Under the pieces are notes generated by a model. It worked only from the letters and a program-made list of their open reading frames with translations, was not told the origin of the DNA and did no database searches. A stretch of 64,000 nucleotides of DNA from a bacterium (GTDB lineage: Bacteria > Patescibacteriota > Minisyncoccia > Phycocordibacterales > UBA9973), in the NCBI GenBank assembly GCA_037127795.1, contig JBAXXQ010000001.1:78607-142606 (forward strand). The letters run 5' to 3'. Of the stretch, positions 2,969 through 46,558 are shown piece after piece (within the stretch, counting starts at the first letter, position 1; each line of letters starts with the position of its first letter). Position numbers and translations under genes: made by a program.

Positions 2969-4174
2969 ATGAATAACTCAAAAGATACCCAAGAGAAAAT
3001 CAGTACCCTAATAGAAAAAGGGGTTTCTGAAATTTTACCAAGTAAAAAATTCCTTGAATCACTTTTAATACAAGATAAAAAGCTTCGTATATATGCAGGA
3101 TTTGATCCGACAGGGCCAACACTTCACCTCGGACACACTATTCAGCTTCGCAAGTTGCGACATTTCCAAGATCTCGGTCATGAAATAATCTTTTTAATAG
3201 GAGATTTTACTGCACGCATTGGAGACCCTACAGACAAGACTGCCGCACGCAAACAACTCACTGAAAAAGAAATAAAAACAAATTTGAAATTGTACAAAAA
3301 ACAAGCAGAAAAATTTATTAGCTTTTCTGGAAGAAATGGTGCAAAAATAAAATTCAATAATGACTGGCTCGGTAAAATGAAGTTTGCAGATGTGCTCGAA
3401 CTTGCAAGTCATATGACTGTAGATCAAATGCTCAAGCGCGATATGTTTGCTCGTCGTATCGAAGAAGAAAAGCCAATTTATATTCACGAATTTATGTATC
3501 CACTCATGCAAGGATACGATAGTGTCTATATGCAAGTAGATGGAGAAGTAGGGGGGAATGACCAGCTTTTCAACATGCTCGCAGGACGCACACTTCTTAA
3601 ACAATTGAAAAATAAAGAGAAATTTGTTATCACTACAAAACTCCTCGAAGATGCGAATGGTAAAAAAATGGGAAAGACCGAAGGTAATATGGTGTCTCTC
3701 ATTGATACCCCAGAAGATATGTATGGCAAAATAATGTCTTGGACAGATGGGCTTATGGTTCCAGGTTTTGAGCTTTGTACTGATTTGAGTATGGGTGAAA
3801 TTGCTGATATTACAAAAGAATTAGAAAATGGTGCACATCCTCGCACTATCAAAATGTGTCTTGCATACGAAATTACAAAATCTATTCATGGGGAAAAAAG
3901 TGCACAGCAAGCACAAGATAATTTTGTAAGTATGTTTCAAAAAAAAGAAATTCCTACTGATGCGCAAAAGATAAATATACAAAACAAAACACTTGAAGAG
4001 ATTCTTATAGAAAACAACCTTCTTACTTCAAAAGGGGAAGTGCGACGTATGCTCGAAAGTGGTGCTATAAAAAATCTTTCAACAGACACAGTATTAAAAA
4101 ACGAAGATGCAAAAAGTATTCCAGGACAAGGAGTATATAAAATAGGAAAAGCAAAGTTTATAGAGTTTGTATAA
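2969..4174 (+). CDS. tyrS: tyrosine--tRNA ligase
   Basis: HLGH (HIGH variant) and KMGKT (KMSKS) class-I motifs; GFDPTGPTLHLGH; C-terminal S4-like tail. Confidence 0.9.
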   Translation: MNNSKDTQEKISTLIEKGVSEILPSKKFLESLLIQDKKLRIYAGFDPTGPTLHLGHTIQLRKLRHFQDLGHEIIFLIGDFTARIGDPTDKTAARKQLTEKEIKTNLKLYKKQAEKFISFSGRNGAKIKFNNDWLGKMKFADVLELASHMTVDQMLKRDMFARRIEEEKPIYIHEFMYPLMQGYDSVYMQVDGEVGGNDQLFNMLAGRTLLKQLKNKEKFVITTKLLEDANGKKMGKTEGNMVSLIDTPEDMYGKIMSWTDGLMVPGFELCTDLSMGEIADITKELENGAHPRTIKMCLAYEITKSIHGEKSAQQAQDNFVSMFQKKEIPTDAQKINIQNKTLEEILIENNLLTSKGEVRRMLESGAIKNLSTDTVLKNEDAKSIPGQGVYKIGKAKFIEFV

Positions 4175-4180
4175 ATAAAA

Positions 4181-4207
4181 AACCCCGAGAGTCTCGGGTT
4201 TTTTTTG
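4181..4207 (+). terminator. rho-independent terminator after tyrS
   Basis: aaccccgagagtctcgggtttttttt: GC stem, then T-run. Confidence 0.7.
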
Positions 4208-4214
4208 TATGGTT

Positions 4215-4580
4215 TTAAAAATTATTTATTTCTCTAAATAATCTTTCAGTAGATTTTGCTCCGGTATTGCATATAGCAAGATCAAAACCACTCGTGTTTG
4301 CTGGAGAAAAACCAGCAGAATAAAGAATTACTTTTGTTTCTGGGTGTTTTTCTTTTGCACCCTTTAAAAGTAGTAATGAGGCACTGGTTGGGTTGTCTGA
4401 TTCTCCACCAGCAACAATAGAACTTGTAATAACAAGACAGTTTTTACCGACTAAGCCTACTGCTTGTTTCCAGTTTTGTGCATATACAACTTCTAGGTGT
4501 GGACATGTATGCTCAATTCGGTCTTTTACTGCTTCAAAATATAAGAAGCTTTCTGCGCAAAGAATAACTAATTTTTTCAT
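4215..4580 (-). CDS. hypothetical protein (possible receiver-like fold, no clear phospho-acceptor Asp)
   Basis: 121-aa ORF with alternating beta/alpha-like pattern; no diagnostic motif. Confidence 0.3.
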   Translation of the reverse strand: MKKLVILCAESFLYFEAVKDRIEHTCPHLEVVYAQNWKQAVGLVGKNCLVITSSIVAGGESDNPTSASLLLLKGAKEKHPETKVILYSAGFSPANTSGFDLAICNTGAKSTERLFREINNF

Positions 4581-4859
4581 TGTATTTTTTTCTATACAAT
4601 ACTTTATTCAAAAATAAAGTCAAATTATTTCAACCCGAAAAGTTTGCCGAGGAGATCTGTCCAAGTCTTTTGAAATAAGGTTACAAAGAGAAAACCAGGG
4701 ACAAAAAAGACACTTACCAATATAAAAAGTATAAGGTCGAATATAAAAGCAATAATGTCTTCGGCTGATTTCACTACTCGTATACTACAAAAAATGACGA
4801 AATGGTCAAATTATGGTGGAAAACACATGTTACAAAAAGTCGTGGTATTATAGATATAT

Positions 4860-5786
4860 ATGACGATAGTAATTACTGGAGGATCGGGGTTCGTAGGGAC
4901 AAAGCTTTCAAAAAAGCTTTTAGATAAAGGCTATACAGTGATTGTGGTAGATTTGCATGCACCAACATTTACCAATGAAAAACTATTTTTTATTCCACTT
5001 GATCTTACCAAGTCTATTATTCCTTTTGGTGTTCTCGAACATGCAGATGCAGTAGTCAATCTTTCAGGTGCTCCTATTTCTCAAAAATGGAACGAAGAAG
5101 TACAAAAGGTTATTTATGATAGTCGCATCGAAAGTACTAAACATGTAGTACAAAGCTTTGAAGCAACACATGCTCGCCCAGGAGTACTAGTAAATGCTTC
5201 TGCTATAGGATTTTATGGGGAAACAGGAGAAAGTATTTCTGATGAAAAAACACCTGCAGGAAAAGGGTTTTTGGCAAAAGTAGTTACTGATTGGGAAAAC
5301 GAAGCAAATAAAGCAAGTGCATTTGGGGTACGAGTAGTATTGGTACGTACTGCGCCAGTGCTTGGTTTAGGGGGGATGCTTGCGCTCTATACACAGACAG
5401 CACGGTTTGGATTTTTGCTCGGTCTACAAAAAGATTTTATGCTTTCATGGATCCATGTAGATGATCTTGTAGATGCATATATTTTTGCAATTGAAACCTC
5501 AACCGTACAGGGAGTAATAAATGCTGCTGCTCCAGAGACAACAAGTTATAAAAAATTGATGCTCGCACTTTCACACACTATCCACCGTCGTGCGTTTTTC
5601 TTTATTCCAAAAAAGCTCGCGCTCTATGTATTTGGTGTTGATGGGTATGAAGAGTTGACTGTAAACCAGCTCGCCAAGCCAAGTAGATTGCTTGATAAGG
5701 GGTTCGTATTTACTTATCCGACACTACAAGGTGCTCTCACACAAATATATCCAGTAGTACAAAAAAACCATGAAAAGAGTAGATAG
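4860..5786 (+). CDS. NAD-dependent epimerase/dehydratase family protein (YfcH/TIGR01777-like)
   Basis: N-terminal Rossmann motif ITGGSGFVGTKL; length and C-terminal region fit the YfcH (DUF1731) family; extended -10 tgGTATTAT 8 nt before ATG (leaderless). Confidence 0.6.
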   Translation: MTIVITGGSGFVGTKLSKKLLDKGYTVIVVDLHAPTFTNEKLFFIPLDLTKSIIPFGVLEHADAVVNLSGAPISQKWNEEVQKVIYDSRIESTKHVVQSFEATHARPGVLVNASAIGFYGETGESISDEKTPAGKGFLAKVVTDWENEANKASAFGVRVVLVRTAPVLGLGGMLALYTQTARFGFLLGLQKDFMLSWIHVDDLVDAYIFAIETSTVQGVINAAAPETTSYKKLMLALSHTIHRRAFFFIPKKLALYVFGVDGYEELTVNQLAKPSRLLDKGFVFTYPTLQGALTQIYPVVQKNHEKSR

Positions 5787-6645
5787 TGTAGTACAACCAA
5801 GTGCCGGATACGAACTTATCGATTGTGGTAATGGACGCAAGTTAGAACAATTTGGCGAACTTGTTCTCGATAGACCAGATCCTCAGGCACTTTGGCAAAA
5901 AACAGACAAGTCTCTTTGGGTGCGCGCTGATGGGCAATTCCTTTGGAAAGAAAGTGGTGAACGGTGGAAAATGCAGCAAGGCATCGCAGACTCTTGGCAT
6001 ATGGCGTATGCAGATATGGTTTTTTCTCTTTCAACAAAAGGATTCAAACATGTAGGGATTTTTCCAGAACATATTGCGCAATGGGAAGAATTGTACACAC
6101 TCGGCAAAAAATATGCGAATACCAAGCAACCATTAAAAATGCTTAATTTGTTTGGCTATACTGGCGCCGCAAGTGTCGCAGGATCTCTCGCTGGTATGCA
6201 GGTGACTCACGTAGACGCATCAAAAACAACTATACTCACAGTCCGAGAAAATATGGAGCTCTCAGGACTCAAACAAGATGCAATGCGTATTATTTGTGAA
6301 GATGCATTTCTCTATGTGAAGCGTTTGGTGAAAAGAGGGGAGCAGTTTGATGTTATTGTGATGGATCCACCAGCTTTTGGTCGTGGACCAAAAGGCGAAG
6401 TATGGAAAATAGAAGAATCTCTCACCGAGTTTCTCGCACTTCTTCCATCTATTGTTTCACCTAGTGCAAAACTTGTTATTTTAAATGGATACGCAGCAGG
6501 GTACAGTGCTCGCACATTTGGTGAACTTCTCGGCGAATCTCTCAAAGATAAAAAAGGTGAAATAATATATGGCGATATTGGTATGCAACAAAAAAATACC
6601 GATCGTGTGCTCACAACCGGTATTTATGCGAAATGGGTTAAGTAA
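5770..6645 (+). CDS. class I SAM-dependent (rRNA-type) methyltransferase, RlmI/YccW-like catalytic domain
   Basis: LNLFGYTGAASVAG (SAM-binding), DVIVMDPPAFGRG (DPPxF motif). Confidence 0.6.
   Translation: MKRVDSVVQPSAGYELIDCGNGRKLEQFGELVLDRPDPQALWQKTDKSLWVRADGQFLWKESGERWKMQQGIADSWHMAYADMVFSLSTKGFKHVGIFPEHIAQWEELYTLGKKYANTKQPLKMLNLFGYTGAASVAGSLAGMQVTHVDASKTTILTVRENMELSGLKQDAMRIICEDAFLYVKRLVKRGEQFDVIVMDPPAFGRGPKGEVWKIEESLTEFLALLPSIVSPSAKLVILNGYAAGYSARTFGELLGESLKDKKGEIIYGDIGMQQKNTDRVLTTGIYAKWVK
6586..6645 (+). repeat. direct repeat copy 1 (3' end of methyltransferase ORF), 57/60 identical to 8235-8294
   Basis: caacaaaaaaataccgatcgtgtgctcacaaccggtatttatGcgaaatgggtTaaGtaa. Confidence 0.9.
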
Positions 6646-6664
6646 ATTTTTTATATATAAAAAA

Positions 6665-6688
6665 AACCACGATACGTTCGTGGTTTTT
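6665..6688. terminator. bidirectional rho-independent terminator
   Basis: aaaaaaaccacgatacgttcgtggttttt between convergent genes. Confidence 0.6.
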
Positions 6689-6693
6689 AGTTT

Positions 6694-7326
6694 TTAACTA
6701 GCAATACCTAAATAGGGTACATGGTTACCGAAATGGTCAATACAAAAAGTATCAATAGTGTCATTTTTTGGTATTTCACGATATGCAGGTATCGGACAAA
6801 TTCCAATACTTGAATCATTAGTTTTTAAATACCTGGTAACACCAGCACTACTAGTTGATCTTCCTTCGTTTTGTAATGCGCGTACGAGAACCCCATCAAC
6901 ACCATATTCTGTTAGTAATTTTGGTAAATCAATAACAGTAGACCCATCATCGACAACTGATATAACAATAGGAATATTCAAATCCTTTGCTTTTTGTATT
7001 GCATTTTTTGCCATATCATTAGTAAATTTATTTAAACTTATTTCAACCCTAGTAAGACCAGATCTTACGGATGCTTTGGTAGCGCATAAAACAGAAACAC
7101 GCTTACCTAGATTAAATATTTTTTCTAATAATTCATCAAAACCTACAAACAATCCAGTTTCTCCGTTGCTTGTTAGATACACCTCATCACAAGAGGGGAG
7201 CTCTTTCAAAACAGTAGCTATTACTTTTTCTGAATCTCCTTCGTTGTGTTTTGGTGTTCTACAAAAACTACAACCAAGTGGGCATGGTGCTGGCAGTTGT
7301 ACTGCCAAAATCTTTTGCTTTTTCAT
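6694..7326 (-). CDS. small radical SAM domain protein (unknown specificity)
   Basis: CPLGCSFC = CxxxCxxC 4Fe-4S/SAM cluster motif near N-terminus; 210 aa. Confidence 0.6.
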   Translation of the reverse strand: MKKQKILAVQLPAPCPLGCSFCRTPKHNEGDSEKVIATVLKELPSCDEVYLTSNGETGLFVGFDELLEKIFNLGKRVSVLCATKASVRSGLTRVEISLNKFTNDMAKNAIQKAKDLNIPIVISVVDDGSTVIDLPKLLTEYGVDGVLVRALQNEGRSTSSAGVTRYLKTNDSSIGICPIPAYREIPKNDTIDTFCIDHFGNHVPYLGIAS

Positions 7327-7374
7327 TTTTAATTATTTTTAATAGTACACAATATATTTATACTATATACTATA

Positions 7375-7399
7375 CTGTATTGTTATATTTGCAATACAG
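7375..7399. promoter_or_regulatory. inverted repeat CTGTATTG-N9-CAATACAG in divergent promoter region (candidate operator)
   Basis: Perfect 8-bp inverted repeat between the divergent radical-SAM and TrmB-like genes; TTGACA-N17/18-TATACT promoter follows at 7411-7440. Confidence 0.4.
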
Positions 7400-7466
7400 T
7401 TTTATATAATTTGACAAAAAGATATTATTTTATATATACTAAATACTGTTATTAACTATTAACAAC

Positions 7467-8228
7467 ATGATAGAAGAAACACTACAAAACATAGGGTTAA
7501 CTGATAAAGAAATTCAAGTTTTTTTAACAGTTTTTCAAAATAAAAGAATTTTACCAGCACGAATAAGTACACTGTCTGGTATTAATCGTTCTACGGTATA
7601 TGTAATTGGGGAAAAACTAGAAAAAGAAGGACTTATTACTATCGATTACGGAAATAGTAGTAGATATTTTGTTGCACCTGATATACAAGATTTGGAAAAA
7701 CAACTAAAACAAGAAGAAGAAAAACTTCAAAAAAAAGAGCAGTCTTATAAAAATTTACTCAAAGAGCTTAAAAATTTACCTGTTACTGGAAAATATTCAG
7801 TACCAAAAATTCGTTTTATAGCAGAACATCAATTAAAAGATTTTCTTATTAAAGAATCAGATAAATGGGCAAAAAGCGCTCTTTTATATGATAAAACATG
7901 GTGGGGGTATCAAGACCCTACACTACTCGAGCAATATGAATCTTGGCCTGATTATTTTTGGCCAAAATATAAGAACGACATCTTGATGAAAATTTTTACA
8001 AATAAAAAGATTATCGAAAAAAAGATTAGTAAAAAGAATTATTCAGGCAAGAGAATGATTAAATTCCTTGATCCTAAAAAACATGATTTTTCTGCAACAC
8101 AGGTAGTTGTTGGAGAATATATTCTTATGATAGTAACAAGAGAACATCCTCATTATTTAATAGAGATACACGATGCTGTTATGGCTCACAATCTTAGAGA
8201 ATCTTTTAAATTAATGTGGGGAGAATAG
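7467..8228 (+). CDS. TrmB-family (winged HTH) transcriptional regulator
   Basis: N-terminal LTDKEIQVFLTVFQNKRILPARISTLSGINRSTVYVIGEKLEKEGLI matches the TrmB-type HTH; 253 aa. Confidence 0.55.
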   Translation: MIEETLQNIGLTDKEIQVFLTVFQNKRILPARISTLSGINRSTVYVIGEKLEKEGLITIDYGNSSRYFVAPDIQDLEKQLKQEEEKLQKKEQSYKNLLKELKNLPVTGKYSVPKIRFIAEHQLKDFLIKESDKWAKSALLYDKTWWGYQDPTLLEQYESWPDYFWPKYKNDILMKIFTNKKIIEKKISKKNYSGKRMIKFLDPKKHDFSATQVVVGEYILMIVTREHPHYLIEIHDAVMAHNLRESFKLMWGE

Positions 8229-8234
8229 TGTGTA

Positions 8235-8294
8235 CAACAAAAAAATACCGATCGTGTGCTCACAACCGGTATTTATACGAAATGGGTAAAATAA
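8235..8294 (+). repeat. direct repeat copy 2 (relic of methyltransferase 3' end), 57/60 identical to 6586-6645
   Basis: caacaaaaaaataccgatcgtgtgctcacaaccggtatttatAcgaaatgggtAaaAtaa immediately after the TrmB stop. Confidence 0.9.
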
Positions 8295-8585
8295 TTAAAC
8301 TTCTTCAATTTGAAATTCAGAAAAGTAAGCACTCGGGTTTAATTCTAAAGCTTCCAAAACTGCAAAGATTAGAATTTTTACCGTAATTGCATAACTAAAA
8401 TGTATTTCTACAGATAGTTCTTTTTGATCAGAATGATCTATCTTTTTTAGTTCAGGAAGAATACGCATTCCTACTGTTTGTAAAAAAGAAGCTTGAATAC
8501 TATCAAATAGTAACCTTTCCTTATTTTTTGGAATAAGTTTTTCAAAACATCGAGTTGTTACTCGTACATTGTCAGTAAATCTCAT
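8295..8585 (-). CDS. hypothetical protein
   Basis: 96-aa ORF, no recognisable motif. Confidence 0.3.
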   Translation of the reverse strand: MRFTDNVRVTTRCFEKLIPKNKERLLFDSIQASFLQTVGMRILPELKKIDHSDQKELSVEIHFSYAITVKILIFAVLEALELNPSAYFSEFQIEEV

Positions 8586-8685
8586 ATATTATTTTTTTAT
8601 TAAAATACTCTTTATTAAAAATAAGTCAAGTTTTTTATACATGCTATAATTCATTCTGTTATAAGAATTAGAAAGTAATACAGAT

Positions 8686-9300
8686 ATGTCATTTTTAACA
8701 CAACTCAATTGGCGGTATGCCACAAAAAAGTTTGATACAGAAAAAAAGATATCAGACGAGCAATTACAAAAAATACAACAAGCTATCAAGATGGCGCCAA
8801 GCTCATTCGGATTGCAACCATTGCATGTATTGGTAATAACCAACTCAGAACTTCGTGAGCAATTGAAAGGTGCTTCATGGGGGCAGGGACAAGTAACTGA
8901 TGCGTCACATCTTTTTGTATTTTGCGCTCGTACAGACTTGCTTGCTCGTACCAATACTTTTTTTGAAGCAATATCTGGTGGCTCAGCAGAAGCTCGTGCA
9001 GGATTGAAAGGCTACGAAGAAATGATTACCAATACAGTAAATGCACTTTCTCCAGAAAAAGCACAACAATGGACTGCTCGCCAAGCATATATTGCGCTCG
9101 GTTTTGCTTTGGCTGCATGTGCAGAGCTCGAAATAGATTCTTGCCCAATGGAAGGATTTGATCCAGCACAATATCATCACATTCTCAATCTTCCAGAAGA
9201 TATGCAAGCAGTGCTTGTGCTCCCTGTAGGATTTCGTCACGCAGACGATGTTATTAGACCTAAATTTAGATTCAATGACATCTTCGAAACTCGCGCCTAA
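8686..9300 (+). CDS. nitroreductase family NAD(P)H oxidoreductase
   Basis: LNWRYATKKFD N-terminus and overall pattern typical of NfsB/NfnB-like nitroreductases. Confidence 0.75.
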   Translation: MSFLTQLNWRYATKKFDTEKKISDEQLQKIQQAIKMAPSSFGLQPLHVLVITNSELREQLKGASWGQGQVTDASHLFVFCARTDLLARTNTFFEAISGGSAEARAGLKGYEEMITNTVNALSPEKAQQWTARQAYIALGFALAACAELEIDSCPMEGFDPAQYHHILNLPEDMQAVLVLPVGFRHADDVIRPKFRFNDIFETRA

Positions 9301-9700
9301 GTATAGTGTTCCTGGAGACCTTGTTGTAAAAAAGGGGATTAATGGACTCGGCCTTTTTACCAAAGTATCTATCAAAAAAGGTGATTGTATTATTGAATAT
9401 GTCGGTGAAATAATCACTGAAGATGAAGCAAATATTCGTGGTGGCAAATATCTTTTTCAAACAGGAAAAAATCGCCATATAGATGGTACTGCTCGGACAA
9501 ATACTGCCCGCTATCTCAATCACTCATGTCGCCCCAACGCAGAGAGTGATATCAAAAAAGGACGCATATTTATCTTTGCAAAAAGAAATATCAAACCTGG
9601 CGAAGAGCTTTGTTATGATTATGGTAAAGAATACTTCAATGAATACATCAAACCAAAAGGGTGTCGGTGTGAGAAATGCGTAGTAAAACAAGAAGTGTAG
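9275..9700 (+). CDS. SET-domain protein (putative protein lysine methyltransferase)
   Basis: NHSCRPN and ELCYDYG SET signature motifs; C-terminal CRCEKC post-SET-like Cys cluster; ATG at 9275 overlaps the nitroreductase 3' end by 26 nt. Confidence 0.75.
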   Translation: MTSSKLAPKYSVPGDLVVKKGINGLGLFTKVSIKKGDCIIEYVGEIITEDEANIRGGKYLFQTGKNRHIDGTARTNTARYLNHSCRPNAESDIKKGRIFIFAKRNIKPGEELCYDYGKEYFNEYIKPKGCRCEKCVVKQEV

Positions 9701-9777
9701 ACGACTATGTTTTACTTAGTCCAGCAAGGTTTCATAATAAAAAACCGAGTCGGGCAGTGCTAAGTCAATAAAAGGTA

Positions 9778-10215
9778 ATGCAAAAGATTCAATTTAAAAA
9801 AACATATTTTTTAATTATTTCAGATAGGCTTGTTACAAGACTTGGTCGCTTAATATCTCTCGGTGATAATGCTATGGCTATCACATTCTGGCCGTTACTT
9901 ATAGTGCGACCCTCTACAAAAGACAATGCAGAGCTTATTCGCCATGAGACAATTCATATCAGACAACAAATAGAACTTCTTGTTATTGGTGCACACCTTT
10001 TATATCTTGTTGAATATTGTTATGCCAGATATATTAAAAAATTTGATAAACGCCAAGCGTATTACTATACAGCAATAGAACAAGAAGCTCACAGGAATGC
10101 AATGAAAGAGGATTATTTGAAAACAAGAAAACCATATGCGGTTTTGTATTACATACGAAACAAAAAATGGCTTGCTCGTGGTCCACAGGGTGAACTTATA
10201 GAAAAAGAGTACTAA
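9778..10215 (+). CDS. hypothetical protein with HExxH (HETIH) zincin-like motif
   Basis: HETIH within a 145-aa partly hydrophobic protein; family not assignable by eye. Confidence 0.35.
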   Translation: MQKIQFKKTYFLIISDRLVTRLGRLISLGDNAMAITFWPLLIVRPSTKDNAELIRHETIHIRQQIELLVIGAHLLYLVEYCYARYIKKFDKRQAYYYTAIEQEAHRNAMKEDYLKTRKPYAVLYYIRNKKWLARGPQGELIEKEY

Positions 10216-10220
10216 AATAA

Positions 10221-10250
10221 AAAGCCCCAGAATTTTCTGAGGCTTTTTAA
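10221..10250. terminator. bidirectional terminator
   Basis: aaaagccccagaattttctgaggcttttt between convergent genes. Confidence 0.6.
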
Positions 10251-10252
10251 TA

Positions 10253-10474
10253 TTACATTTCTTCGTAGCGATCGCCGAACATATATTCTTCGAATTCAGG
10301 ATCTGTATCATCATCTTCTGGTTCTTCTTTTTTCTTTCCGGTGATGGGGTCTATATCAGAATCTGCGAGAGGATCGATTATATCATCGTCGACGATAGGA
10401 TCTTCTATTTCGTCTTCTTCGATAATAACCGCACTTGGGTCGAGCTCGTCTTTGTTGAATTCAGTTTCATCCAT
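10253..10474 (-). CDS. highly acidic small protein (73 aa, ~45% D/E), downstream of ruvC on same strand
   Basis: MDETEFNKDELDPSAVIIEEDEIEDPIVDDDIIDPLADSDIDPITGKKKEEPEDDDTDPEFEEY... Confidence 0.4.
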   Translation of the reverse strand: MDETEFNKDELDPSAVIIEEDEIEDPIVDDDIIDPLADSDIDPITGKKKEEPEDDDTDPEFEEYMFGDRYEEM

Positions 10475-10556
10475 AAATCAAATATATGATAACAATTTTT
10501 TATTTTAATAATGCAATTATTTGTATCAAAATATAGTTTTCTTTGCAAGTCTTTTT

Positions 10557-11039
10557 CTACAATTCCCAGTTTTTTTGTTTTATAGCTCCCAATGAGGCTA
10601 TTCCGAGCGCGATAGCATCTATTTCGTCATCAAGTTTTTTGTCTGTATTTATGTGTAGTGTGAGCTGTACCATCTTTTGTACTTGCTCTTTATTGGCGTT
10701 TCCTATGCCCGTGAGGGCTAGTTTGACCTCTTGAGGGGAGAGTTCTATGAGTGGGATTTTGTGTAGCCCAGCGAGGAGTACAAATACACCGCGCGCTTGT
10801 GCAACATTGATTACTGTCTTTTTATTTACCGAAAAAAACAACGTTTCCAATGCAATATATGCAGGCTTTTCTTGCATGAGAATTTTTTCAGCCTCTGTAT
10901 AGATATATGCGAGGCGTTTTTCTATGGAATCTTTTTTGTCTGTGGTGATACACGCAGAATGTAATATCGCACCCTCTGTATCGAGAAGGGCAATACCACA
11001 TCTATCGTACCCAGGATCTATAGCGAGGATTTTTATCAT
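10557..11039 (-). CDS. ruvC: crossover junction endodeoxyribonuclease RuvC
   Basis: MIKILAIDPGYDRCGIALLD N-terminal catalytic Asp region; 160 aa. Confidence 0.9.
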   Translation of the reverse strand: MIKILAIDPGYDRCGIALLDTEGAILHSACITTDKKDSIEKRLAYIYTEAEKILMQEKPAYIALETLFFSVNKKTVINVAQARGVFVLLAGLHKIPLIELSPQEVKLALTGIGNANKEQVQKMVQLTLHINTDKKLDDEIDAIALGIASLGAIKQKNWEL

Positions 11040-12034
11040 GCAATATAATGTCTGCCTTTTTCTGTAATAACACGACCGCGTTGGGTGCGTTCGAGGAGGC
11101 CGAGCTGTATAAGGTATGGCTCGATGACGTCTTCTATAGTCCCTTCATCTTCGCCTGTTGCTGCGGCAATGTTTTTTACTCCCACAGGGCCACCACCAAA
11201 TTTATCTTGTATGGTGTGTAGTATTGCAATATCATTTTTTGATAAACCGAGCGCATCAAGTCCGAGGAGATCAAACGCTTCCATAACAGATGCAGTATCA
11301 ATATTTTTTTGTTGCATTTGTGCATAGTCTCGCACACGACGGAGAAGGTAGTTTGCTATACGAGGAGTTTTGCGACTGCGGCTTGCTATATGATCTGTCT
11401 CTTCTTGGGGGATAGGGATAGAAAGGATTTCTGCAGAGCGAGTGAGGATCTTTTTTATTTCTTCATCGGTATAAAATTCCAAACGAAATGTCCCTCCAGA
11501 GAATCGTGAACGCAATGGAGAAGATACCATACCAAAACGAGTCGTTGCAGCGAGTAGTGTAAACGGGGGAAGCTCAAGTTGGATTGCGCGAGCAGAAGGA
11601 CCTTTACCAATCATGATATCCATCTTGCCTGTTTCCATTACAGGGTACAAAATTTCTTCAATAGTTTTGTTGAGTCGATGAATTTCATCGATAAATAAAA
11701 TATCACCAGGTTTGAGGTTGGTAAGTATTGCAGCGAGATCACCAACACGCTCTATAGAAGGGCCTGAAGTAATTTTTATTTGTGCACCGACTTCGCGAGC
11801 GATCACATGGGCGAGTGTTGTCTTACCGAGACCTGGTGGTCCATAAAAAAGTATGTGTTCAGGGGCATGTCCGCGAGATTTTGCGGCTCCTATGAGGATA
11901 GAAAGGTTCTTTTTTATCTGGCTTTGGCCGATATATTCGTCAAAAGAATTTGGACGCAACACATTGTCGCTGAATTGGTCATCGAGGCTGGCAGATATAG
12001 GTGTTTTTGGTGTGTTGGTGGGGGTACTTGACAT
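11036..12034 (-). CDS. ruvB: Holliday junction branch-migration ATPase RuvB
   Basis: Walker A GPPGLGKTTLAHVIA, sensor and winged-helix regions; 4-nt overlap with ruvC. Confidence 0.95.
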   Translation of the reverse strand: MSSTPTNTPKTPISASLDDQFSDNVLRPNSFDEYIGQSQIKKNLSILIGAAKSRGHAPEHILFYGPPGLGKTTLAHVIAREVGAQIKITSGPSIERVGDLAAILTNLKPGDILFIDEIHRLNKTIEEILYPVMETGKMDIMIGKGPSARAIQLELPPFTLLAATTRFGMVSSPLRSRFSGGTFRLEFYTDEEIKKILTRSAEILSIPIPQEETDHIASRSRKTPRIANYLLRRVRDYAQMQQKNIDTASVMEAFDLLGLDALGLSKNDIAILHTIQDKFGGGPVGVKNIAAATGEDEGTIEDVIEPYLIQLGLLERTQRGRVITEKGRHYIA

Positions 12035-14332: not shown

Positions 14333-14360
14333 TTCAATTAAGAAAGGTTTTTTTATTTAT
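14333..14360. terminator. bidirectional terminator
   Basis: aaaaaaacctttcaattaagaaaggtttttttattt between convergent genes. Confidence 0.7.
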
Positions 14361-16072
14361 TCCATATCGACGACACTTTGTACTTCTTCAAAATCTGTAA
14401 TACCTTGGAGGATTTTTACGAGGCCATCTTCGCGCATATCGAGAGTGCCTTGTTGGTCAGCAATTTTTTTGATATCGCGCTCAGTAGGGTTTTGCATAAT
14501 GATATGTTCAATATTTTCATCCATTTGTATTGCTTCAAAAACACCAAGCCGTCCTTTGTAGCCTGTGTGGTTGCAGTGAGTACAGCCTTTTGCTGCAACA
14601 AGTGTTTGTACGTCTCGTTGTACACCAAATTGTGCCATATCTTTTTTATTTGCTATAGCATTGTCCCAAATTTTTTGTATCAAAAGTGTTTCTTTTTCTG
14701 TGACAGGGCGATCATAGCGACATTCAGTACAAATTTTTCGTACAAGACGCTGCGCAATAGAAAGCGAAAGAGCGGATACGAGAATCTTTGGATTCACATC
14801 AAGATCGATAAGGCGGGGGATAACACCAGACGCATTGTTGGTGTGCAGTGTTGAAAATACCAAGTGTCCAGTAAGTGCACTTTCTACTGCGATTTTTGCT
14901 GTTTCACTGTCTCGGATTTCTCCCACCATGATTGTATCTGGATCTTGTCGAAGTGCCGATCGAAGCCCTTCGAGGAAGGTATAGCCAAGTTTGTGATCTA
15001 CTTGTGTCTGTGTGATACCAGGAAGGTGGTATTCGATAGGGTCTTCGATGGTAATAATTTTTATTTCAGGAGAAAATATTTTTTGCAAAAAGGCATACAA
15101 AGTGGTGGTCTTTCCAGATCCTGTCGGCCCAGTAAGGAGTATCATGCCGTGAGGTTTTTTGATCTCTTTCATAAAAAGCTCATACATGGGGGCAGAGATT
15201 CCCATTTGGTCGAGTTGTACACGAATAGATTTTGGATTCAAAATACGAAGCACAATACTTTCGCCATATGCGCCTGGGATAAGTGATGTACGAAAACTAA
15301 TTTCTATTTTTTCTTCGTCTTTTGTTCCACCAAGGAATGCACTAAATCGTCCGTCTTGGGCATTGGCTACTTGAGTGAGCTTGAGTCCTGAAATAAGTTT
15401 TACGCGAGTGTTGAGCTGGTGGTATGTTGCCGTATCAAACATAGTGATGACATGGAGTACGCCGTCGAGACGAAAACGCAATTCAGCGTTATTTTCCATA
15501 GGTTCTATGTGTACATCAGATGCACCAAGTCCAATACCGCATCCAAGAATAATTTCGAGGATACGAGAGAGGTGGTGCATTGAAGTGTCGTTTTTTGCGA
15601 GATCAATACGAGTAGTCGCATCATCAAGAGTTTTTACAGAGACTGCGAGCTCTTCGAGAACCTCAGGAGAAATATCGAGTCCACCACTACGAGAAGTAGT
15701 TGCAAAAGAAAGATCTTCGTAGTGAGTCCATACTTTCTTTATACTTTTTTCACTTGCCATATTAAATACAACTTCGAAACCATCTGCCTCAAGTTTTTCT
15801 TTTGCGCTTCGTGCGCCAGTTGCAATAGGGGATCGTACTGCGAGAAAGAGCTTCTTACCAATAAGTTTGTATGGGCCAACATCAAAATGTTTTGCTTCTT
15901 CTTCGGTGAGGAGGCGAATTGCGTCATTACTAATAGTTTGACTTTCAAGATTTACATAAGGAATTTGGTACTTTTCTTCGGCGAGTGTCTTAACAAGAGA
16001 TTCTTCTTCTTGCTCTCGAAGAGTTCTAAGTCGTTTGTTTTGTTGTGTTTCATCAAAGGTTACCATAATCAA
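14357..16072 (-). CDS. pilB: type IV pilus assembly / type II secretion ATPase (PilB/GspE family)
   Basis: Walker A LLTGPTGSGKTTTL, Asp box, His box; tetracysteine CTECRYD...CTHCNHTGYKGR; N-terminal GspII_E-N-like domain. Confidence 0.85.
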   Translation of the reverse strand: MIMVTFDETQQNKRLRTLREQEEESLVKTLAEEKYQIPYVNLESQTISNDAIRLLTEEEAKHFDVGPYKLIGKKLFLAVRSPIATGARSAKEKLEADGFEVVFNMASEKSIKKVWTHYEDLSFATTSRSGGLDISPEVLEELAVSVKTLDDATTRIDLAKNDTSMHHLSRILEIILGCGIGLGASDVHIEPMENNAELRFRLDGVLHVITMFDTATYHQLNTRVKLISGLKLTQVANAQDGRFSAFLGGTKDEEKIEISFRTSLIPGAYGESIVLRILNPKSIRVQLDQMGISAPMYELFMKEIKKPHGMILLTGPTGSGKTTTLYAFLQKIFSPEIKIITIEDPIEYHLPGITQTQVDHKLGYTFLEGLRSALRQDPDTIMVGEIRDSETAKIAVESALTGHLVFSTLHTNNASGVIPRLIDLDVNPKILVSALSLSIAQRLVRKICTECRYDRPVTEKETLLIQKIWDNAIANKKDMAQFGVQRDVQTLVAAKGCTHCNHTGYKGRLGVFEAIQMDENIEHIIMQNPTERDIKKIADQQGTLDMREDGLVKILQGITDFEEVQSVVDME

Positions 16073-37065: not shown

Positions 37066-37458
37066 ATGCAAACAGAAGACACACAGACAGAAATACAAAA
37101 AGAAGAAACAGTGGTAGAAGAAAAAACCTACATCACTATAGACGACTTTAAAAAAGTTGAAGCGCGTATTGGAAAAATCCTTACCGCAGAAGCAGTAGAA
37201 AATTCTGATAAGCTTATAAAATTTTCAATTGATTTTGGAGAAGAAAATCCTCGCCAAATATTGTCTGCAATTCGTGAATGGTATACAGACCCGAGTGCGC
37301 TTGTAGGGAAGAGTATGCTTTTTTGTACAAATCTCGCGCCGCGTCCTATCAGAGGGTATGAATCCAACGGTATGTTGATGGCAGTAGATGGTATAGATGG
37401 CAAACCAGTTTTTCTTGTTGCAGATGATGCAGTGCATCCTGGTAGTGCCGTGCGATAA
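37066..37458 (+). CDS. stand-alone tRNA-binding domain protein (Trbp111/CsaA/EMAP-like OB fold)
   Basis: ITIDDFKKVEARIGKILTAE...KLIKFSIDFGEE...MLFCTNLAPRPIRGYESNGMLMA matches the Myf/tRNA-binding domain found at PheT/MetG termini. Confidence 0.7.
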   Translation: MQTEDTQTEIQKEETVVEEKTYITIDDFKKVEARIGKILTAEAVENSDKLIKFSIDFGEENPRQILSAIREWYTDPSALVGKSMLFCTNLAPRPIRGYESNGMLMAVDGIDGKPVFLVADDAVHPGSAVR

Positions 37459-37486
37459 AAATAAAAATATCGTATACTACATACAC

Positions 37487-38551
37487 ATGAAATTTGCACA
37501 ATTGTTTCCGACACCAAAATTTATTATGCCGACTACGGTAGGTATAGATTTTTCTGACACAGCACTTCGTTTTCTTTCATTAGAAAAAAAGGGAGATATA
37601 TTGTTGCCTGCTAGCTTCAAAGAAATACCACTCAATCCAGGTGTTGTAGTAGGAGGGCGAGTAAAAGATACTGCGGCTTTTAGTGCAGTATTACAAAATG
37701 TAAAAGATACGCATGGTATAGAGTTTGTAAAAGTTTCTATACCTGAATCCCAACTCTATCTTTCTACTATCGCTATAGACAAAGCAGATGCGCACCATAT
37801 GTCGCAAGCAATAGAGCTAGTATTGGAAGACCATATCCCGCTTACGCTCAACGAAGCAGTATTTGATTTTAGTGTACTCAAAGAGGAGCAAGACAAAATA
37901 ATAGTACAAGTAGTCGCCGCACCAATTGCTATCATTCAGGAATTGCATGATATTTTGTCTGGGGTAGGGCTTATACCACTTGCATTTGAGCTCGAGGGGC
38001 AGGCTGTTGCTCGGGCAATATTTAGTAATCCAAATGAAGGAAGTCGTATGATTGTAGATTTTGGCGCAGCGCGTACTACTATCACGGTGGTAACAGGGGG
38101 AATTTCTGTATTTACCTCAACACTTGAATTCGGTGGTGCGCACCTTACTACTATGCTTGCAAAAGAGCTCAATGTATCTTTAGAAGACGCAGAGACGCTC
38201 AAGCGTACCTATGGGCTCCAAGCTATGGGTGAGCGCCAAGATATTTTTGAAGTTATATCAGGTGGGGTAGGGACATTGAAAGATGAAATAAATCGCCGCT
38301 ATGTATTTTGGCATGAACAAAATGATCAGAATTTTCATTTTCCCCGCATTCAAGATATTGTGATCTGTGGAGGGTACAGTAATTTGCCAGGTCTTGCAGA
38401 TTATTTGTCTGCATCATTGAAGTTGCAAGTATCGCAAGCATCTCCATGGAAGAATTGTTTTTCTACAGATGATACAATACCAAGTATAGATAAAGAGCGT
38501 GCAATGAGTTTTATTACCTGTATAGGACTTTGTTTGAGTGATTATGAATAA
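37487..38551 (+). CDS. pilM: type IV pilus assembly protein PilM (actin-like ATPase)
   Basis: TTVGIDFSDTALRF N-terminus, actin-fold segments; -10 TATACT at 37473-37478; start ATG 37487. Confidence 0.75.
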   Translation: MKFAQLFPTPKFIMPTTVGIDFSDTALRFLSLEKKGDILLPASFKEIPLNPGVVVGGRVKDTAAFSAVLQNVKDTHGIEFVKVSIPESQLYLSTIAIDKADAHHMSQAIELVLEDHIPLTLNEAVFDFSVLKEEQDKIIVQVVAAPIAIIQELHDILSGVGLIPLAFELEGQAVARAIFSNPNEGSRMIVDFGAARTTITVVTGGISVFTSTLEFGGAHLTTMLAKELNVSLEDAETLKRTYGLQAMGERQDIFEVISGGVGTLKDEINRRYVFWHEQNDQNFHFPRIQDIVICGGYSNLPGLADYLSASLKLQVSQASPWKNCFSTDDTIPSIDKERAMSFITCIGLCLSDYE

Positions 38552-39068
38552 TATTTTACCACAAGAAGAAAAGCGAGAAATAAAAAAAATGATGCGCATG
38601 CGTCTTTGGGTTGCTGTTTGTGGTGCATTGGTATTGATACTCGCTATGATGTGGGTATTACTGATCCCTACAGAGCTTTTGCTAAAATCACAGCTTGCTG
38701 TATTGCACACACAATCAGATAGTTTGCGTGCGCGGTCTGGTGCTGTCGCACTCGATCAATCTATCGGATCACTTACTACACAAACTGCAAGTCTTGAAAA
38801 AACCCTTGTATTACAAAAGGATAAGCCGTTTTATCAAACAGTAAAAACAGTACTTGGTAATACGTATACAGGTATTGCTATACAATCAGTCAGTATTTCT
38901 TCTGCACCAGGGGCAGTATCAGTAACGGGTGTTGCACAAGATCGAGAATCTCTCGAAGCATTTGATGCGCAGCTCCGAGCACTTCCTGGGGTGACTGATA
39001 TCGAGAGTCCGTTGTCGAACTTTATCAAAAGTAAGGGCGGGCAGTTTTCTGTCAGTATCATTTTTTAA
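38538..39068 (+). CDS. pilN: type IV pilus assembly protein PilN-like
   Basis: Short cytoplasmic N-term, single TM, periplasmic coiled region; operonic with pilM. Confidence 0.5.
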   Translation: MIMNNILPQEEKREIKKMMRMRLWVAVCGALVLILAMMWVLLIPTELLLKSQLAVLHTQSDSLRARSGAVALDQSIGSLTTQTASLEKTLVLQKDKPFYQTVKTVLGNTYTGIAIQSVSISSAPGAVSVTGVAQDRESLEAFDAQLRALPGVTDIESPLSNFIKSKGGQFSVSIIF

Positions 39069-39071
39069 TAT

Positions 39072-39632
39072 ATGCATCAATACATCAAAAAACAAAAAAC
39101 AACACTTAGCATACTTATTTGTTTGATCATAGTATGTGGATTTTTTGTATATCAAACAATACATACTATTGGAAATATGGAGCAGGGTATCACTGATGCA
39201 AAAAAAACTATTGCACAATTTACTACTACAGACACTGGGCAATCTGCCCACACTGCAGCGATTTCTGATTTGCAAAACGCCGTCAATAGTTTAAGTAAAA
39301 ATATTTTACACAAAGATGATGTACCAGGATTTCTTTCTCACATAGAAGATCTCGCGACAAAAAACGGAGTAGATTTTAGTGTGGTAAATGTTGATACAGG
39401 ATCTCAGGATACTACAAAAAAACTTTCTATAGCATTTTCTGTAAAGGGGACACAGGCTGCAATACAAACTTTTTTTGATGTAGTACAAGCACAACCACAA
39501 GCAGTTCGTCTTTCACAATTATTCTTTTCACTTACCGCAACAAATGTTGATATGTCTGGTACTAAAAAAGGTCACATAGCAATACCACAAGCAGGTGCAA
39601 CGGGAACATTAGAAGTATTGAGTATACAATAA
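39072..39632 (+). CDS. pilO: type IV pilus assembly protein PilO-like
   Basis: TM anchor + periplasmic domain, position after pilN. Confidence 0.45.
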   Translation: MHQYIKKQKTTLSILICLIIVCGFFVYQTIHTIGNMEQGITDAKKTIAQFTTTDTGQSAHTAAISDLQNAVNSLSKNILHKDDVPGFLSHIEDLATKNGVDFSVVNVDTGSQDTTKKLSIAFSVKGTQAAIQTFFDVVQAQPQAVRLSQLFFSLTATNVDMSGTKKGHIAIPQAGATGTLEVLSIQ

Positions 39633-45831: not shown

Positions 45832-45916
45832 AATATATTAAAAAACAATAAAAAATAGATTTGTCAAATAGGTGCTGTATATTCTTTTAAATATTCATTC
45901 ATTTAAAAAATATACT

Positions 45917-46558
45917 ATGCAAGTAAAAGAATGTTCACCTGTAGGGATAGATGTTATACAAAACAAAGGAGCAATTATTATCGGAGTAAGTATTAATAAT
46001 AGTTATTTTAAAGAATCTAATTTAACAAAAATAATTTCTTGGTCAGCGACAAGAGCAAGTAATGTTTATATTATGATTCCTGATACTCCGTCGGTAAGTA
46101 CATTAATTGCTTTAGGGTATGAGCAGAATAAGGCAGAAACACTAGCAAGACTGAAATCTAATAGTTTAGAAAATAAGTGTTTATTTATTATTAAAGAATT
46201 AAATCTTGATAATATAAAAATTATTAGATGGAGGGATTTGATAGGAAGGATAGAATATGTTCAAGCAATCGGGCATATTAAATATTTCTACGACAACGAC
46301 CTATCTTTTAAAGATGCATTGAGAAAAACAACTAGTGATGTTCTCAAACATAATATGTCGGATGTTCCTAGTGAATCTCAGATAGATATAGGTGTTGTTT
46401 TCTTACTTCAAGAGCTTGCCTTTATTTGTCATGCAGACTCTATTTTAAAAGAAGAGAAGTTGGGATATTTGTATCACAACACAATGGATGTTTTAAAAGG
46501 GATTATTGAAAATAGGTTTTCTTTCAAAACAAAAATTGGTTTTATCACCGCAGAATAA
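45917..46558 (+). CDS. tRNA-dependent cyclodipeptide synthase (CDPS, AlbC/YvmC family)
   Basis: AIIIGVSINNSYFKESNLTKIISWSA matches the CDPS hallmark GISxxNSxF..LIxWA; FLLQELAFICH...YLYH matches the ELP(F/Y)..YH C-terminal catalytic region; 213 aa. Confidence 0.65.
   Translation: MQVKECSPVGIDVIQNKGAIIIGVSINNSYFKESNLTKIISWSATRASNVYIMIPDTPSVSTLIALGYEQNKAETLARLKSNSLENKCLFIIKELNLDNIKIIRWRDLIGRIEYVQAIGHIKYFYDNDLSFKDALRKTTSDVLKHNMSDVPSESQIDIGVVFLLQELAFICHADSILKEEKLGYLYHNTMDVLKGIIENRFSFKTKIGFITAE

Follow-up and report, generated by a model that had tools for sequence, protein, structure and literature searches.

A radical SAM and TrmB-like gene pair enclosed by a duplicated methyltransferase gene end in a patescibacterial genome

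A 64-kb stretch of a Patescibacteriota genome (lineage UBA9973; assembly GCA_037127795.1, contig JBAXXQ010000001.1, positions 78,607 to 142,606; 64,000 nt, hereafter the window) carries, directly after the gene for an RNA methyltransferase (MT), a 1,589-bp cassette (6646-8234) with two divergent genes, one for a minimal radical S-adenosylmethionine (SAM) enzyme and one for a TrmB-like regulator, enclosed by two direct copies of the last 60 bp of MT. Comparison with the corresponding loci of relatives establishes the cassette as a lineage-specific insertion. Patescibacteria (the candidate phyla radiation) have tiny genomes with few recognisable mobile elements, and gene gain in them is poorly documented; the present locus is a case of gain resolved to the base, in which one can point to the empty sites, to the gene end that was displaced and to the neighbour present beforehand. 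It is a gene gain without a visible integrase and not a proven mobile element. As the preferred account of the locus we propose, with confidence that is evenly balanced, a homology-assisted, integrase-free insertion that displaced the resident 3' end of MT (‘3'-end displacement’).

The inserted cassette and the empty sites of relatives

The two copies of the MT end (6586-6645 and 8235-8294) are identical at 57 of 60 positions and lie exactly where a first-pass annotation of the sequence had placed them. Their first 42 nt (6586-6627 and 8235-8276) form an exact block that occurs twice in the 64 kb, compared to a chance expectation of 0 (100 shuffles), and the window holds no copy of the repeat beyond these two. 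Translated in frame, either copy reads QQKNTDRVLTTGIY[A/T]KWVK*, the last 20 codons of MT. All three mismatches are confined to the 18-nt tail that follows the exact block: at 6628/8277 GCG is replaced by ACG (Ala to Thr) in the right copy, and the exchanges at 6639/8288 (GTT/GTA) and 6642/8291 (AAG/AAA) are synonymous. The two synonymous differences belong to the coding (left) copy and the single non-synonymous one to the orphan (right) copy. Five substitutions relative to the closest relative (L004) are common to both copies, which argues that both come from this lineage or from a very close one. The right copy follows the stop codon of the TrmB-like gene (8226-8228) at a distance of 6 nt, in keeping with the annotation, and its end coincides with the stop codon of a minus-strand open reading frame (ORF) at 8295-8585, here called ORF96. 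No other duplication of a gene 3' end was found within the window, in which the remaining repeat families are promoter-like.

A larger segmental duplication, which the first-pass annotation had raised as an alternative, was ruled out: the 26 nt upstream of the two copies, coding DNA in the same phase, match at only ~15 of 26 positions, and the stretch before the right copy encodes the C-terminus that belongs to the TrmB-like protein itself (FKLMWGE) and is conserved among its homologues. The repeat does not extend past 60 bp. An assembly artefact was likewise ruled out by independent contigs from two other public assemblies, each of which crosses one junction at 100% identity with unique sequence on both sides (L001 spans window positions 6130-8071 and the left junction, L096 spans 7909-11530 and the right junction). 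The k=31 unitigs of read set SRR12676973 end inside the repeat, where the occupied and empty states look alike. The first 47 nt of L001 (GCA_964516085.1, contig CAZEYQ010000102.1) are Illumina adapter (GTGACTGGAGTTCAGACGTGTGCTCTTCCGATCT), unmatched to the window and non-genomic.

In this Paceibacteria-like bacterium MT lies a few kb from dnaA, in a block (TyrRS-epimerase-MT-(nitroreductase)-SET-...-RuvC) that is conserved across relatives in the Patescibacteria; in NCBIfam its product has distant RlmK/RlmI matches only. In L004, which is ~89% identical at the nucleotide level and whose MT is 94% identical at the amino-acid level, 14 nt lead from the MT stop to the nitroreductase promoter; positions 8896 and 8911 of that locus correspond to 6644 and 8642 of the window. 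Similarly, nitroreductase or SET follows MT within 100 nt in 32 relatives' loci, the one exception being L018, in which a 357-nt gap after MT holds an ORF96-like gene. The MT identities of these 32 syntenic loci span 94% down to 51%. Across relatives, the interval between MT and SET contains nothing, nitroreductase, ORF96 or, in the window, the radical SAM and TrmB-like pair. Among 85 MT loci, none holds a second copy of its own MT end, nor a radical SAM or TrmB-like gene at this place. The claim that the segment was acquired, with empty sites in relatives, is thereby upheld, and the arrangement that the annotation had considered might be common to all relatives is carried by none of the sampled loci.

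Compared to many precise losses, a gain in one lineage is by far the more parsimonious history. The opposite history, in which an ancestral cassette was lost from the relatives by recombination between the repeats, could draw on the 42-bp perfect repeat, which would permit RecA-mediated deletion restoring MT. This history would require many independent precise losses to leave all 32 syntenic loci (MT 94% to 51%) without the cassette, and it is at odds with the composition of the segment (GC content 0.30, compared to 0.42 in the flanking MT and nitroreductase genes) and with the occurrence of the module's relatives at unrelated loci in other phyla-level groups; we regard it as barely credible. 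The difference in GC content is itself evidence consistent with a foreign origin of the cassette.

The displaced gene end and its convergent neighbour

The identity of the right copy hinges on ORF96. This rare protein has no match in Pfam, NCBIfam or PHROGs, and a word-indexed protein search returned only the protein itself. An exhaustive HMMER search recovered two further 96-aa homologues (P0161 and P0162; 32-34% identity), and a 91-aa ORF in L018 is a fourth member of the family. In all three loci in which a homologue is detectable (L018, L094 and L098), the gene is convergent on MT and abuts or overlaps its 3' end. The ORF96-like gene of L098 (112-402) has 8 nt in common with the MT of that locus, which shares 66% identity with the MT of the window, and an epimerase gene lies beyond; in L094 the 22 nt past the ORF96-like stop read TGIYAKWV on the opposite strand, and SET is the divergent neighbour. 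Judged from these loci, a tail-to-tail pair of MT and ORF96 is a recurrent native arrangement, which identifies the right copy of the repeat as the original MT end left behind.

Since L004 lacks ORF96, the extra DNA relative to that locus amounts to 2.0 kb (6646-8641), ORF96 included. The possibility that ORF96 was part of the cargo, with the right repeat inside a 2.0-kb insert, was ruled out, as all homologues are convergent partners of MT; the cassette is consequently the 1,589 bp between the repeats, the size of ~1.59 kb originally given, and ORF96 lies outside it.

The repeat also contains a hairpin. Each copy holds a run of seven A residues (A7) followed by a 32-nt near-palindrome, AAATACCGATCGTGTG continued by CTCACAACCGGTATTT, whose arms match at 13 of 16 positions; on the minus strand the dyad reads as a hairpin followed by T7, and both copies were reported by a terminator scan. 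Counted from the ORF96 stop, the hairpin of the right copy begins 21 nt downstream. The same antisense hairpin and T7 stand just beyond the ORF96-like stop, within the coding end of MT, in L098 and L018, the two ORF96-like loci with sufficient sequence, and in L098 the hairpin has undergone a compensatory change (ACC/GGT to TCC/GGA). In an alignment of 30 distinct MT ends, 67.9% of the cells pair, compared to 65.0 ± 1.3 in shuffles, of which 9 in 500 attain this value; sliding the partners lowers pairing to 33-51%, and one hairpin pair splits between AU (9 ends) and UA (7 ends). As the region is coding, such pairing across ~30 relatives is suggestive only as support for a hairpin. A structure of A-run, hairpin and T-rich segment recurs among the aligned MT 3' ends of ~30 relatives, with Thr-ACC/Gly-GGT co-varying with Ser-TCC/Gly-GGA.

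These features are consistent with an MT end that doubles as a predicted terminator shared with the convergent neighbour, and the hairpin of the right copy is a predicted terminator for ORF96 (minus strand) and for the TrmB-like gene (plus strand). Such a role provides a reason why the orphan has been kept: the right copy was plausibly retained as terminator for these two genes, and the substitution pattern, with the hairpin and T-tract (42 nt) unchanged between the copies and the tail drifted, fits this retention. The first-pass annotation had read the repeat as the duplicated 3' end of a gene, created by an insert that keeps the gene intact. This reading was borne out, while the embedded terminator-like hairpin and the recurrent convergent ORF96 partner had gone unnoticed. 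A coding 3' end can hold a terminator-like hairpin placed to serve a convergent neighbour, and an insertion between two such genes is tolerated when a 60-bp piece is duplicated.

Table 1. Features of the MT locus and of the cassette (window coordinates; predicted roles are marked as such).
Feature	Position	Strand	Description
MT, class I SAM-dependent RlmI/RlmK-like RNA methyltransferase gene	5770-6645	+	Pfam PF10672, PF03602; intact target
Left repeat copy	6586-6645	+	Last 20 codons of MT, currently functional
Hairpin of left copy	6594-6625		Terminator scan and RNA fold; on the minus strand followed by T7
Predicted bidirectional intrinsic terminator, canonical	6662-6688		Terminator scan; fold z-score -3.5; part of the inserted DNA
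Radical SAM enzyme, minimal, 210 aa	6694-7326	-	CxxxCxxC cluster motif, partial TIM-barrel fold
Candidate operator	7374-7400		Perfect 9-bp inverted repeat, 9-nt spacer, divergent promoter region
Promoter-like site of TrmB-like gene	7411-7440	+	TTGACA-18-TATACT, 11/12 match
TrmB-like regulator, 253 aa	7467-8228	+	PF01978; winged helix-turn-helix, coiled coil, uncharacterised C-terminal domain of ~145 aa
Right repeat copy	8235-8294	+	Displaced (orphan) original MT 3' end, non-coding here; abuts ORF96 stop
Hairpin of right copy	8243-8274		On the minus strand followed by T7 (8236-8242); terminator scan
ORF96, 96 aa	8295-8585	-	Rare protein; pre-existing convergent neighbour of MT, outside the cassette
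Promoter-like site of ORF96	8602-8629	-	TTGACT-16-TATTTT, 9/12, weak match
Homology with L004 resumes: nitroreductase promoter and gene	8642-9300	+	L004 8911-9946 aligns to 8642-9678

The radical SAM/TrmB-like module and its other loci

The cassette is compact: 48 nt separate the MT stop from the radical SAM stop, the two genes share a 140-nt promoter region and 6 nt lead from the TrmB-like stop to the repeat, which makes ~190 nt of non-coding space in total. The divergent pair of CxxxCxxC radical SAM enzyme and TrmB-family protein described in the first-pass annotation was found again by motif and by PF01978. The winged helix at the N-terminus of the TrmB-like protein scores 40.1 bits (cut-off 25.6), its C-terminal part has no Pfam match at E <= 0.01, and matches in the Protein Data Bank to TrmBL2 cover the N-terminal part only; a single-sequence structure model was not used (pLDDT 41). 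An affiliation of the radical SAM protein with QueE/NrdG-like enzymes or with maturases of ribosomally synthesized and post-translationally modified peptides, which the first-pass annotation had named as the comparison to make, did not hold, all scores being far below the family cut-offs (QueE 19 bits against 300, NrdG 15 against 131, SkfB 12 against 300), and a protein of 210 aa is too short to include a C-terminal SPASM domain. The enzyme probably acts on a small molecule. PHROGs and PADLOC gave nothing for the cassette proteins beyond winged-helix noise, and the cassette holds no known RNA element, the sub-threshold Rfam matches being tandem hairpins only.

Between the two genes lies an inverted repeat, ACTGTATTG-N9-CAATACAGT, with arms at 7374-7382 and 7392-7400 that measure 9 bp and not 8 bp as annotated at first; it is a candidate operator. 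The pair may consist of a TrmB-like repressor and the radical SAM enzyme that it regulates. No operator motif is shared across the module loci, most of whose intergenic regions hold some inverted repeat. The idea of an operator conserved across loci was dropped, and the claim is limited to the inverted repeat of the window.

Homologues of the radical SAM protein (39 matches, 45-55% identity, all ~210 aa) occur in Patescibacteria, including Saccharibacteria and Kaiserbacteria. Among 5.8 billion proteins searched, the nearest is 55% identical and no near-identical copy was found. The nearest sampled TrmB-like protein is 70% identical. In every other locus examined, the radical SAM homologue is divergently paired with a TrmB-like homologue, a constancy from which it follows that the pair is a functional unit. 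The module was found in at least 10 other patescibacterial loci, in varied neighbourhoods among housekeeping genes; in none of them does it adjoin MT or stand between copies of the repeat of the window, and no integrase-like neighbours were seen. These loci define a conserved, uncharacterised two-gene module of minimal radical SAM enzyme and TrmB-like protein, a candidate for functional study.

Two of the loci carry tandem arrays. L102 (515-5624) has three tandem modules, each a TrmB-like gene with divergent cargo (128+169 aa, 252 aa, and a radical SAM protein of 207 aa), and L105 (3088-6997) has two, with a radical SAM protein of 213 aa and a 450-aa radical SAM protein as cargos. The arrays suggest a modular class of regulator-cargo pairs in Patescibacteria.

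In three further lineages, flank-against-flank alignment revealed significant direct repeats, each specific to its locus, on either side of the module (scores of 22-26.5, compared to a null maximum of 12.5-15.5). Those of L013 are 39-41 nt of ~88% identity that form a terminator hairpin (4574-4606 and 6643-6675), those of L105 form a perfectly palindromic terminator of 29 nt, with a compensatory pair as the difference between the copies (about 3059-3087 and 4663-4692), and those of L010 are a 32-nt segment of a tRNA flank without hairpin (4775-4806 and 6691-6722). Flanking brackets are absent in six other module loci. Possible sources of the brackets are families of terminator repeats, selection that favours paired terminators on both sides of a divergent pair, or hairpin-directed insertion. 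L009, L013 and L105 share a neighbourhood (ExoIII...CCA enzyme), so that the module is probably old there and the repeats may not date from its insertion. Between the relatives L010 and L103 (87% identity), the surroundings of the module are rearranged (L010 4775-5028 compared to L103 4693-4839 and 2580-2692): a 147-nt tRNA-adjacent segment flanks the module on the left in one of them and on the right in the other, and L010 also has a 1.3-kb insertion relative to L103.

Were the hairpin brackets a reflection of mechanism and not a coincidence, they would suggest that cassettes can be inserted by a new route, in which modules of TrmB-like gene and cargo enter at palindromic terminators that separate convergent genes and duplicate the hairpin by cruciform cleavage or a hairpin enzyme. 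The locus-specific brackets of L013, L105 and L010, two of them bidirectional terminator hairpins, and the tandem arrays of L102 and L105 would fit such a route. As an explanation of the window it is nonetheless very improbable: six loci have no flanking repeat, the repeats may stem from something other than the insertion where the module is probably old (L009/L013/L105), the L010 repeat is no hairpin and belongs to a rearranged tRNA-flank segment, the duplication in the window is asymmetric about its hairpin, with 8 nt to the left and 20 nt to the right of it, and no candidate enzyme was found. The broader conjecture, that TrmB-like and cargo pairs of Patescibacteria form a class of integrase-less cassettes inserting at palindromic, bidirectional terminators of convergent genes and duplicating 29-60 bp of hairpin, is a speculative one to which we give little credence. 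Just as conjecturally, such cassettes might be lost or moved again through their repeats, whether directed by hairpin or cruciform or by a host recombinase acting in trans, with the L102 and L105 arrays as products; and it is quite doubtful that the window, L013, L105 and L010 are the bracketed lineages of one such class.

Other features of the window are recorded here in their own right. L004 differs further in gene content: it has a ClpP gene (10448-11008), missing from the window (10216-10252), between ORF145 and a 73-aa ORF, and around its positions 6876-6975 (window 3950-4745) it seems to be without the TyrRS 3' end. This origin-proximal region has a high turnover of genes. A cyclodipeptide synthase (45872-46558, plus strand; PF16715, E = 2.9e-24) is an uncommon enzyme of secondary metabolism for a reduced genome. 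Within a 634-aa ORF (59695-61599), a 44-nt GC-rich direct repeat of 86% identity occurs at 60693-60736 and 61234-61277, 541 nt apart, and similar promoter-like pairs (TTGACA...TATAAT; 74-76% identity) lie upstream of neighbouring genes at 16116-16165/17176-17225 and 48493-48554/50152-50213.

Routes of insertion and comparison with known systems

According to the homology-assisted account that we prefer, MT and ORF96 would have stood tail to tail in the ancestor, with the hairpin and T7 of the MT end serving as the ORF96 terminator, before the horizontally acquired 1,589-bp module was inserted between them. The second 60-bp MT end would have been either brought by the incoming DNA or created by the event. 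After uptake of DNA from a related donor, two routes may be envisaged. In the first, one-sided homologous recombination in the MT end would be combined with an illegitimate join at a point 60 nt upstream of the stop codon of the resident gene; in the second, a fragment that had become circular would enter by a Campbell-type single crossover. In either case the resident MT end would be displaced. The left copy, which now completes MT, would together with the cassette's own terminator end the radical SAM transcript, and the right copy, as the orphaned original end, would end the transcripts of ORF96 and of the TrmB-like gene. With regard to uptake and recombination, Pfam matches in the window include RuvA, PilM and PilO, and the ORFs for RuvB, RuvC and a T2SSE/PilB-like ATPase (14357-16072) were identified by alignment to annotated genes of L004. 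The type IV pilus assembly genes PilM and PilO (37397-39632) are relevant to the DNA uptake route.

Several observations weigh against this account. No donor arrangement with the module adjoining MT was found (the nearest radical SAM and TrmB-like proteins being 55% and 70% identical), and the MT identity profile relative to L004 shows no donor-derived tract. The sliding identity has no step, its dip at 6475-6600 being a 21-nt indel, and the candidate of a donor tract in MT was rejected on these grounds. The joint at 8229-8235 could share at most 2-3 nt with the MT context. No close relative was found that has MT, ORF96 and nitroreductase in this order and no cassette; L004 itself is without ORF96. 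Covariation in the hairpin gives weak support, the observed values being attained by 9-15 of 500 shuffles, and terminator activity stands as a prediction. Finally, a 60-bp identity segment with an internal dyad also resembles the att sites of tyrosine integrases.

This last resemblance leads to the interpretation of the first-pass annotation, in which the repeats are attL and attR of an integrase-less cassette mobilised in trans, or of a decayed element. A small cassette, akin to those of integrons or to dif modules, would have been inserted, and might be excised, by a tyrosine or serine recombinase whose gene lies at another place in the genome or on a helper element, and the 32-nt dyad would be its core site. 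Direct repeats of a gene 3' end that leave the gene intact, the 42-nt block of identity with its internal 13/16 dyad, the confinement of the mismatches to one arm and the empty sites in relatives would all agree with site-specific integration, and cis-mobilizable elements (CIMEs) keep attL and attR after the loss of their integration genes (PMC5704250). As that annotation had also stated, no integrase is present: neither the cassette nor 30 further ORFs of the window have a Pfam match to an integrase or transposase. Decay is unlikely, as gaps of 48, 140 and 6 nt leave no space for remnants of genes. In addition, 0 of 85 MT loci have another insertion or a duplicated MT end, none of the at least 10 other loci with the module has this sequence at its flanks or MT as a neighbour, no near-identical copies were found among 5.8 billion proteins (best 55%), and the dyad is accounted for by a hairpin that recurs in relatives without insertion. 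An origin from phage, plasmid or virus was rejected, as tblastn against phage and plasmid records and a scan of IMG/VR returned no relatives. No positive evidence supports the claim that the architecture marks attL/attR integration, and we consider site-specific integration unlikely; the homology-assisted route accounts for the observations no less well. Transposons, insertion sequences and miniature inverted-repeat elements find no counterpart in the cassette, which has no transposase and no terminal inverted repeats joining its ends, and the duplication measures 60 bp rather than 2-15 bp.

A further possibility is that the last 60 bp of MT were first doubled in tandem, by slippage or unequal exchange, and that the module landed later between the copies. 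The doubling would be neutral, as the first copy ends in a stop, and the spot between the copies would be the sole one that spares both genes and their terminators, with the consequence that no other insertion would have survived; the limits of the repeat, from the T-tract to the shared stops, match the predicted 3' region of ORF96 and no recombinase-like feature. That simple insertion between convergent genes occurs in this genome is illustrated by RR121, a 121-aa ORF (4215-4580, minus strand; within 4175-4624) with no Pfam match and without counterpart in L005-L008. In those loci no space is left between the stops of TyrRS and of a convergent 49-aa ORF, and RR121, another lineage-specific insertion, sits exactly between these stops; serving as a control insertion, it brings a strong terminator of its own (about 4181-4206) and is not flanked by direct repeats. 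A doubling that came first would nevertheless need two independent events at the same few bases, no relative among the 85 MT loci has a tandem MT end lacking the insert, and no flanking microhomology that could drive slippage is evident; we judge this order of events rather unlikely.

Among recombinase-less cargos, integron cassettes and the Xer-dependent dif modules (integrative mobile elements exploiting Xer, IMEX) have structured or palindromic bounds and are moved in trans. Unlike integrons, the window has no IntI, attI or array, and inspection found no paired R''/R' core sites, a single GTTAAGT being present in the left copy only; unlike dif modules, its repeat lacks the 11-6-11 architecture, and the locus lies near dnaA and not at the replication terminus. 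The minimal mobile elements of Neisseria reportedly exchange by double crossover in conserved flanks, without a duplicated gene end. There too, whole-gene cassettes vary at one spot between conserved genes without mobility genes, and the presumed route is DNA uptake and recombination; the duplicated gene end sets the window apart. The reference for minimal mobile elements is Saunders and Snyder (2002), as cited in PMC1538595. A Campbell-type single crossover of circular DNA with short homology gives the order homology-insert-homology and is reversible. It predicts the layout of the window exactly, with a circle of 1,649 bp (the insert and one repeat copy), while it needs a circular intermediate carrying the MT end of this lineage, and neither such an intermediate nor a donor was observed.

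[quoted passage not shown] They differ in that the cassette is free of remnants of integration or transfer genes and too small to accommodate any, a related element with an integrase is not known at this site, which is vacant in all relatives, and the cargo module occurs elsewhere without these repeats.

Orphaned 3' ends at type VI secretion system (T6SS) and Rhs loci, for which homology-facilitated illegitimate recombination was proposed (Kirchberger et al., 2017, PMC5361080, citing Jackson, 2009, de Vries and Wackernagel, 2002, and Prudhomme, 2002), share with the locus the order of an intact gene, acquired DNA and the old, orphaned 3' end of the gene, with no integrase; the window also holds competence-related pilus and recombination genes. 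As opposed to the orphans of these systems, which comprise a whole toxin tip and immunity gene of a divergent allele, that of the window measures only 60 bp, is near-identical to the functional copy and appears to be kept for a regulatory (terminator) role, and the insert is an unrelated regulator-enzyme module rather than a new variant of the same gene. We regard the locus as a variant of 3'-end displacement, or insertion-duplication, in a poorly studied phylum.

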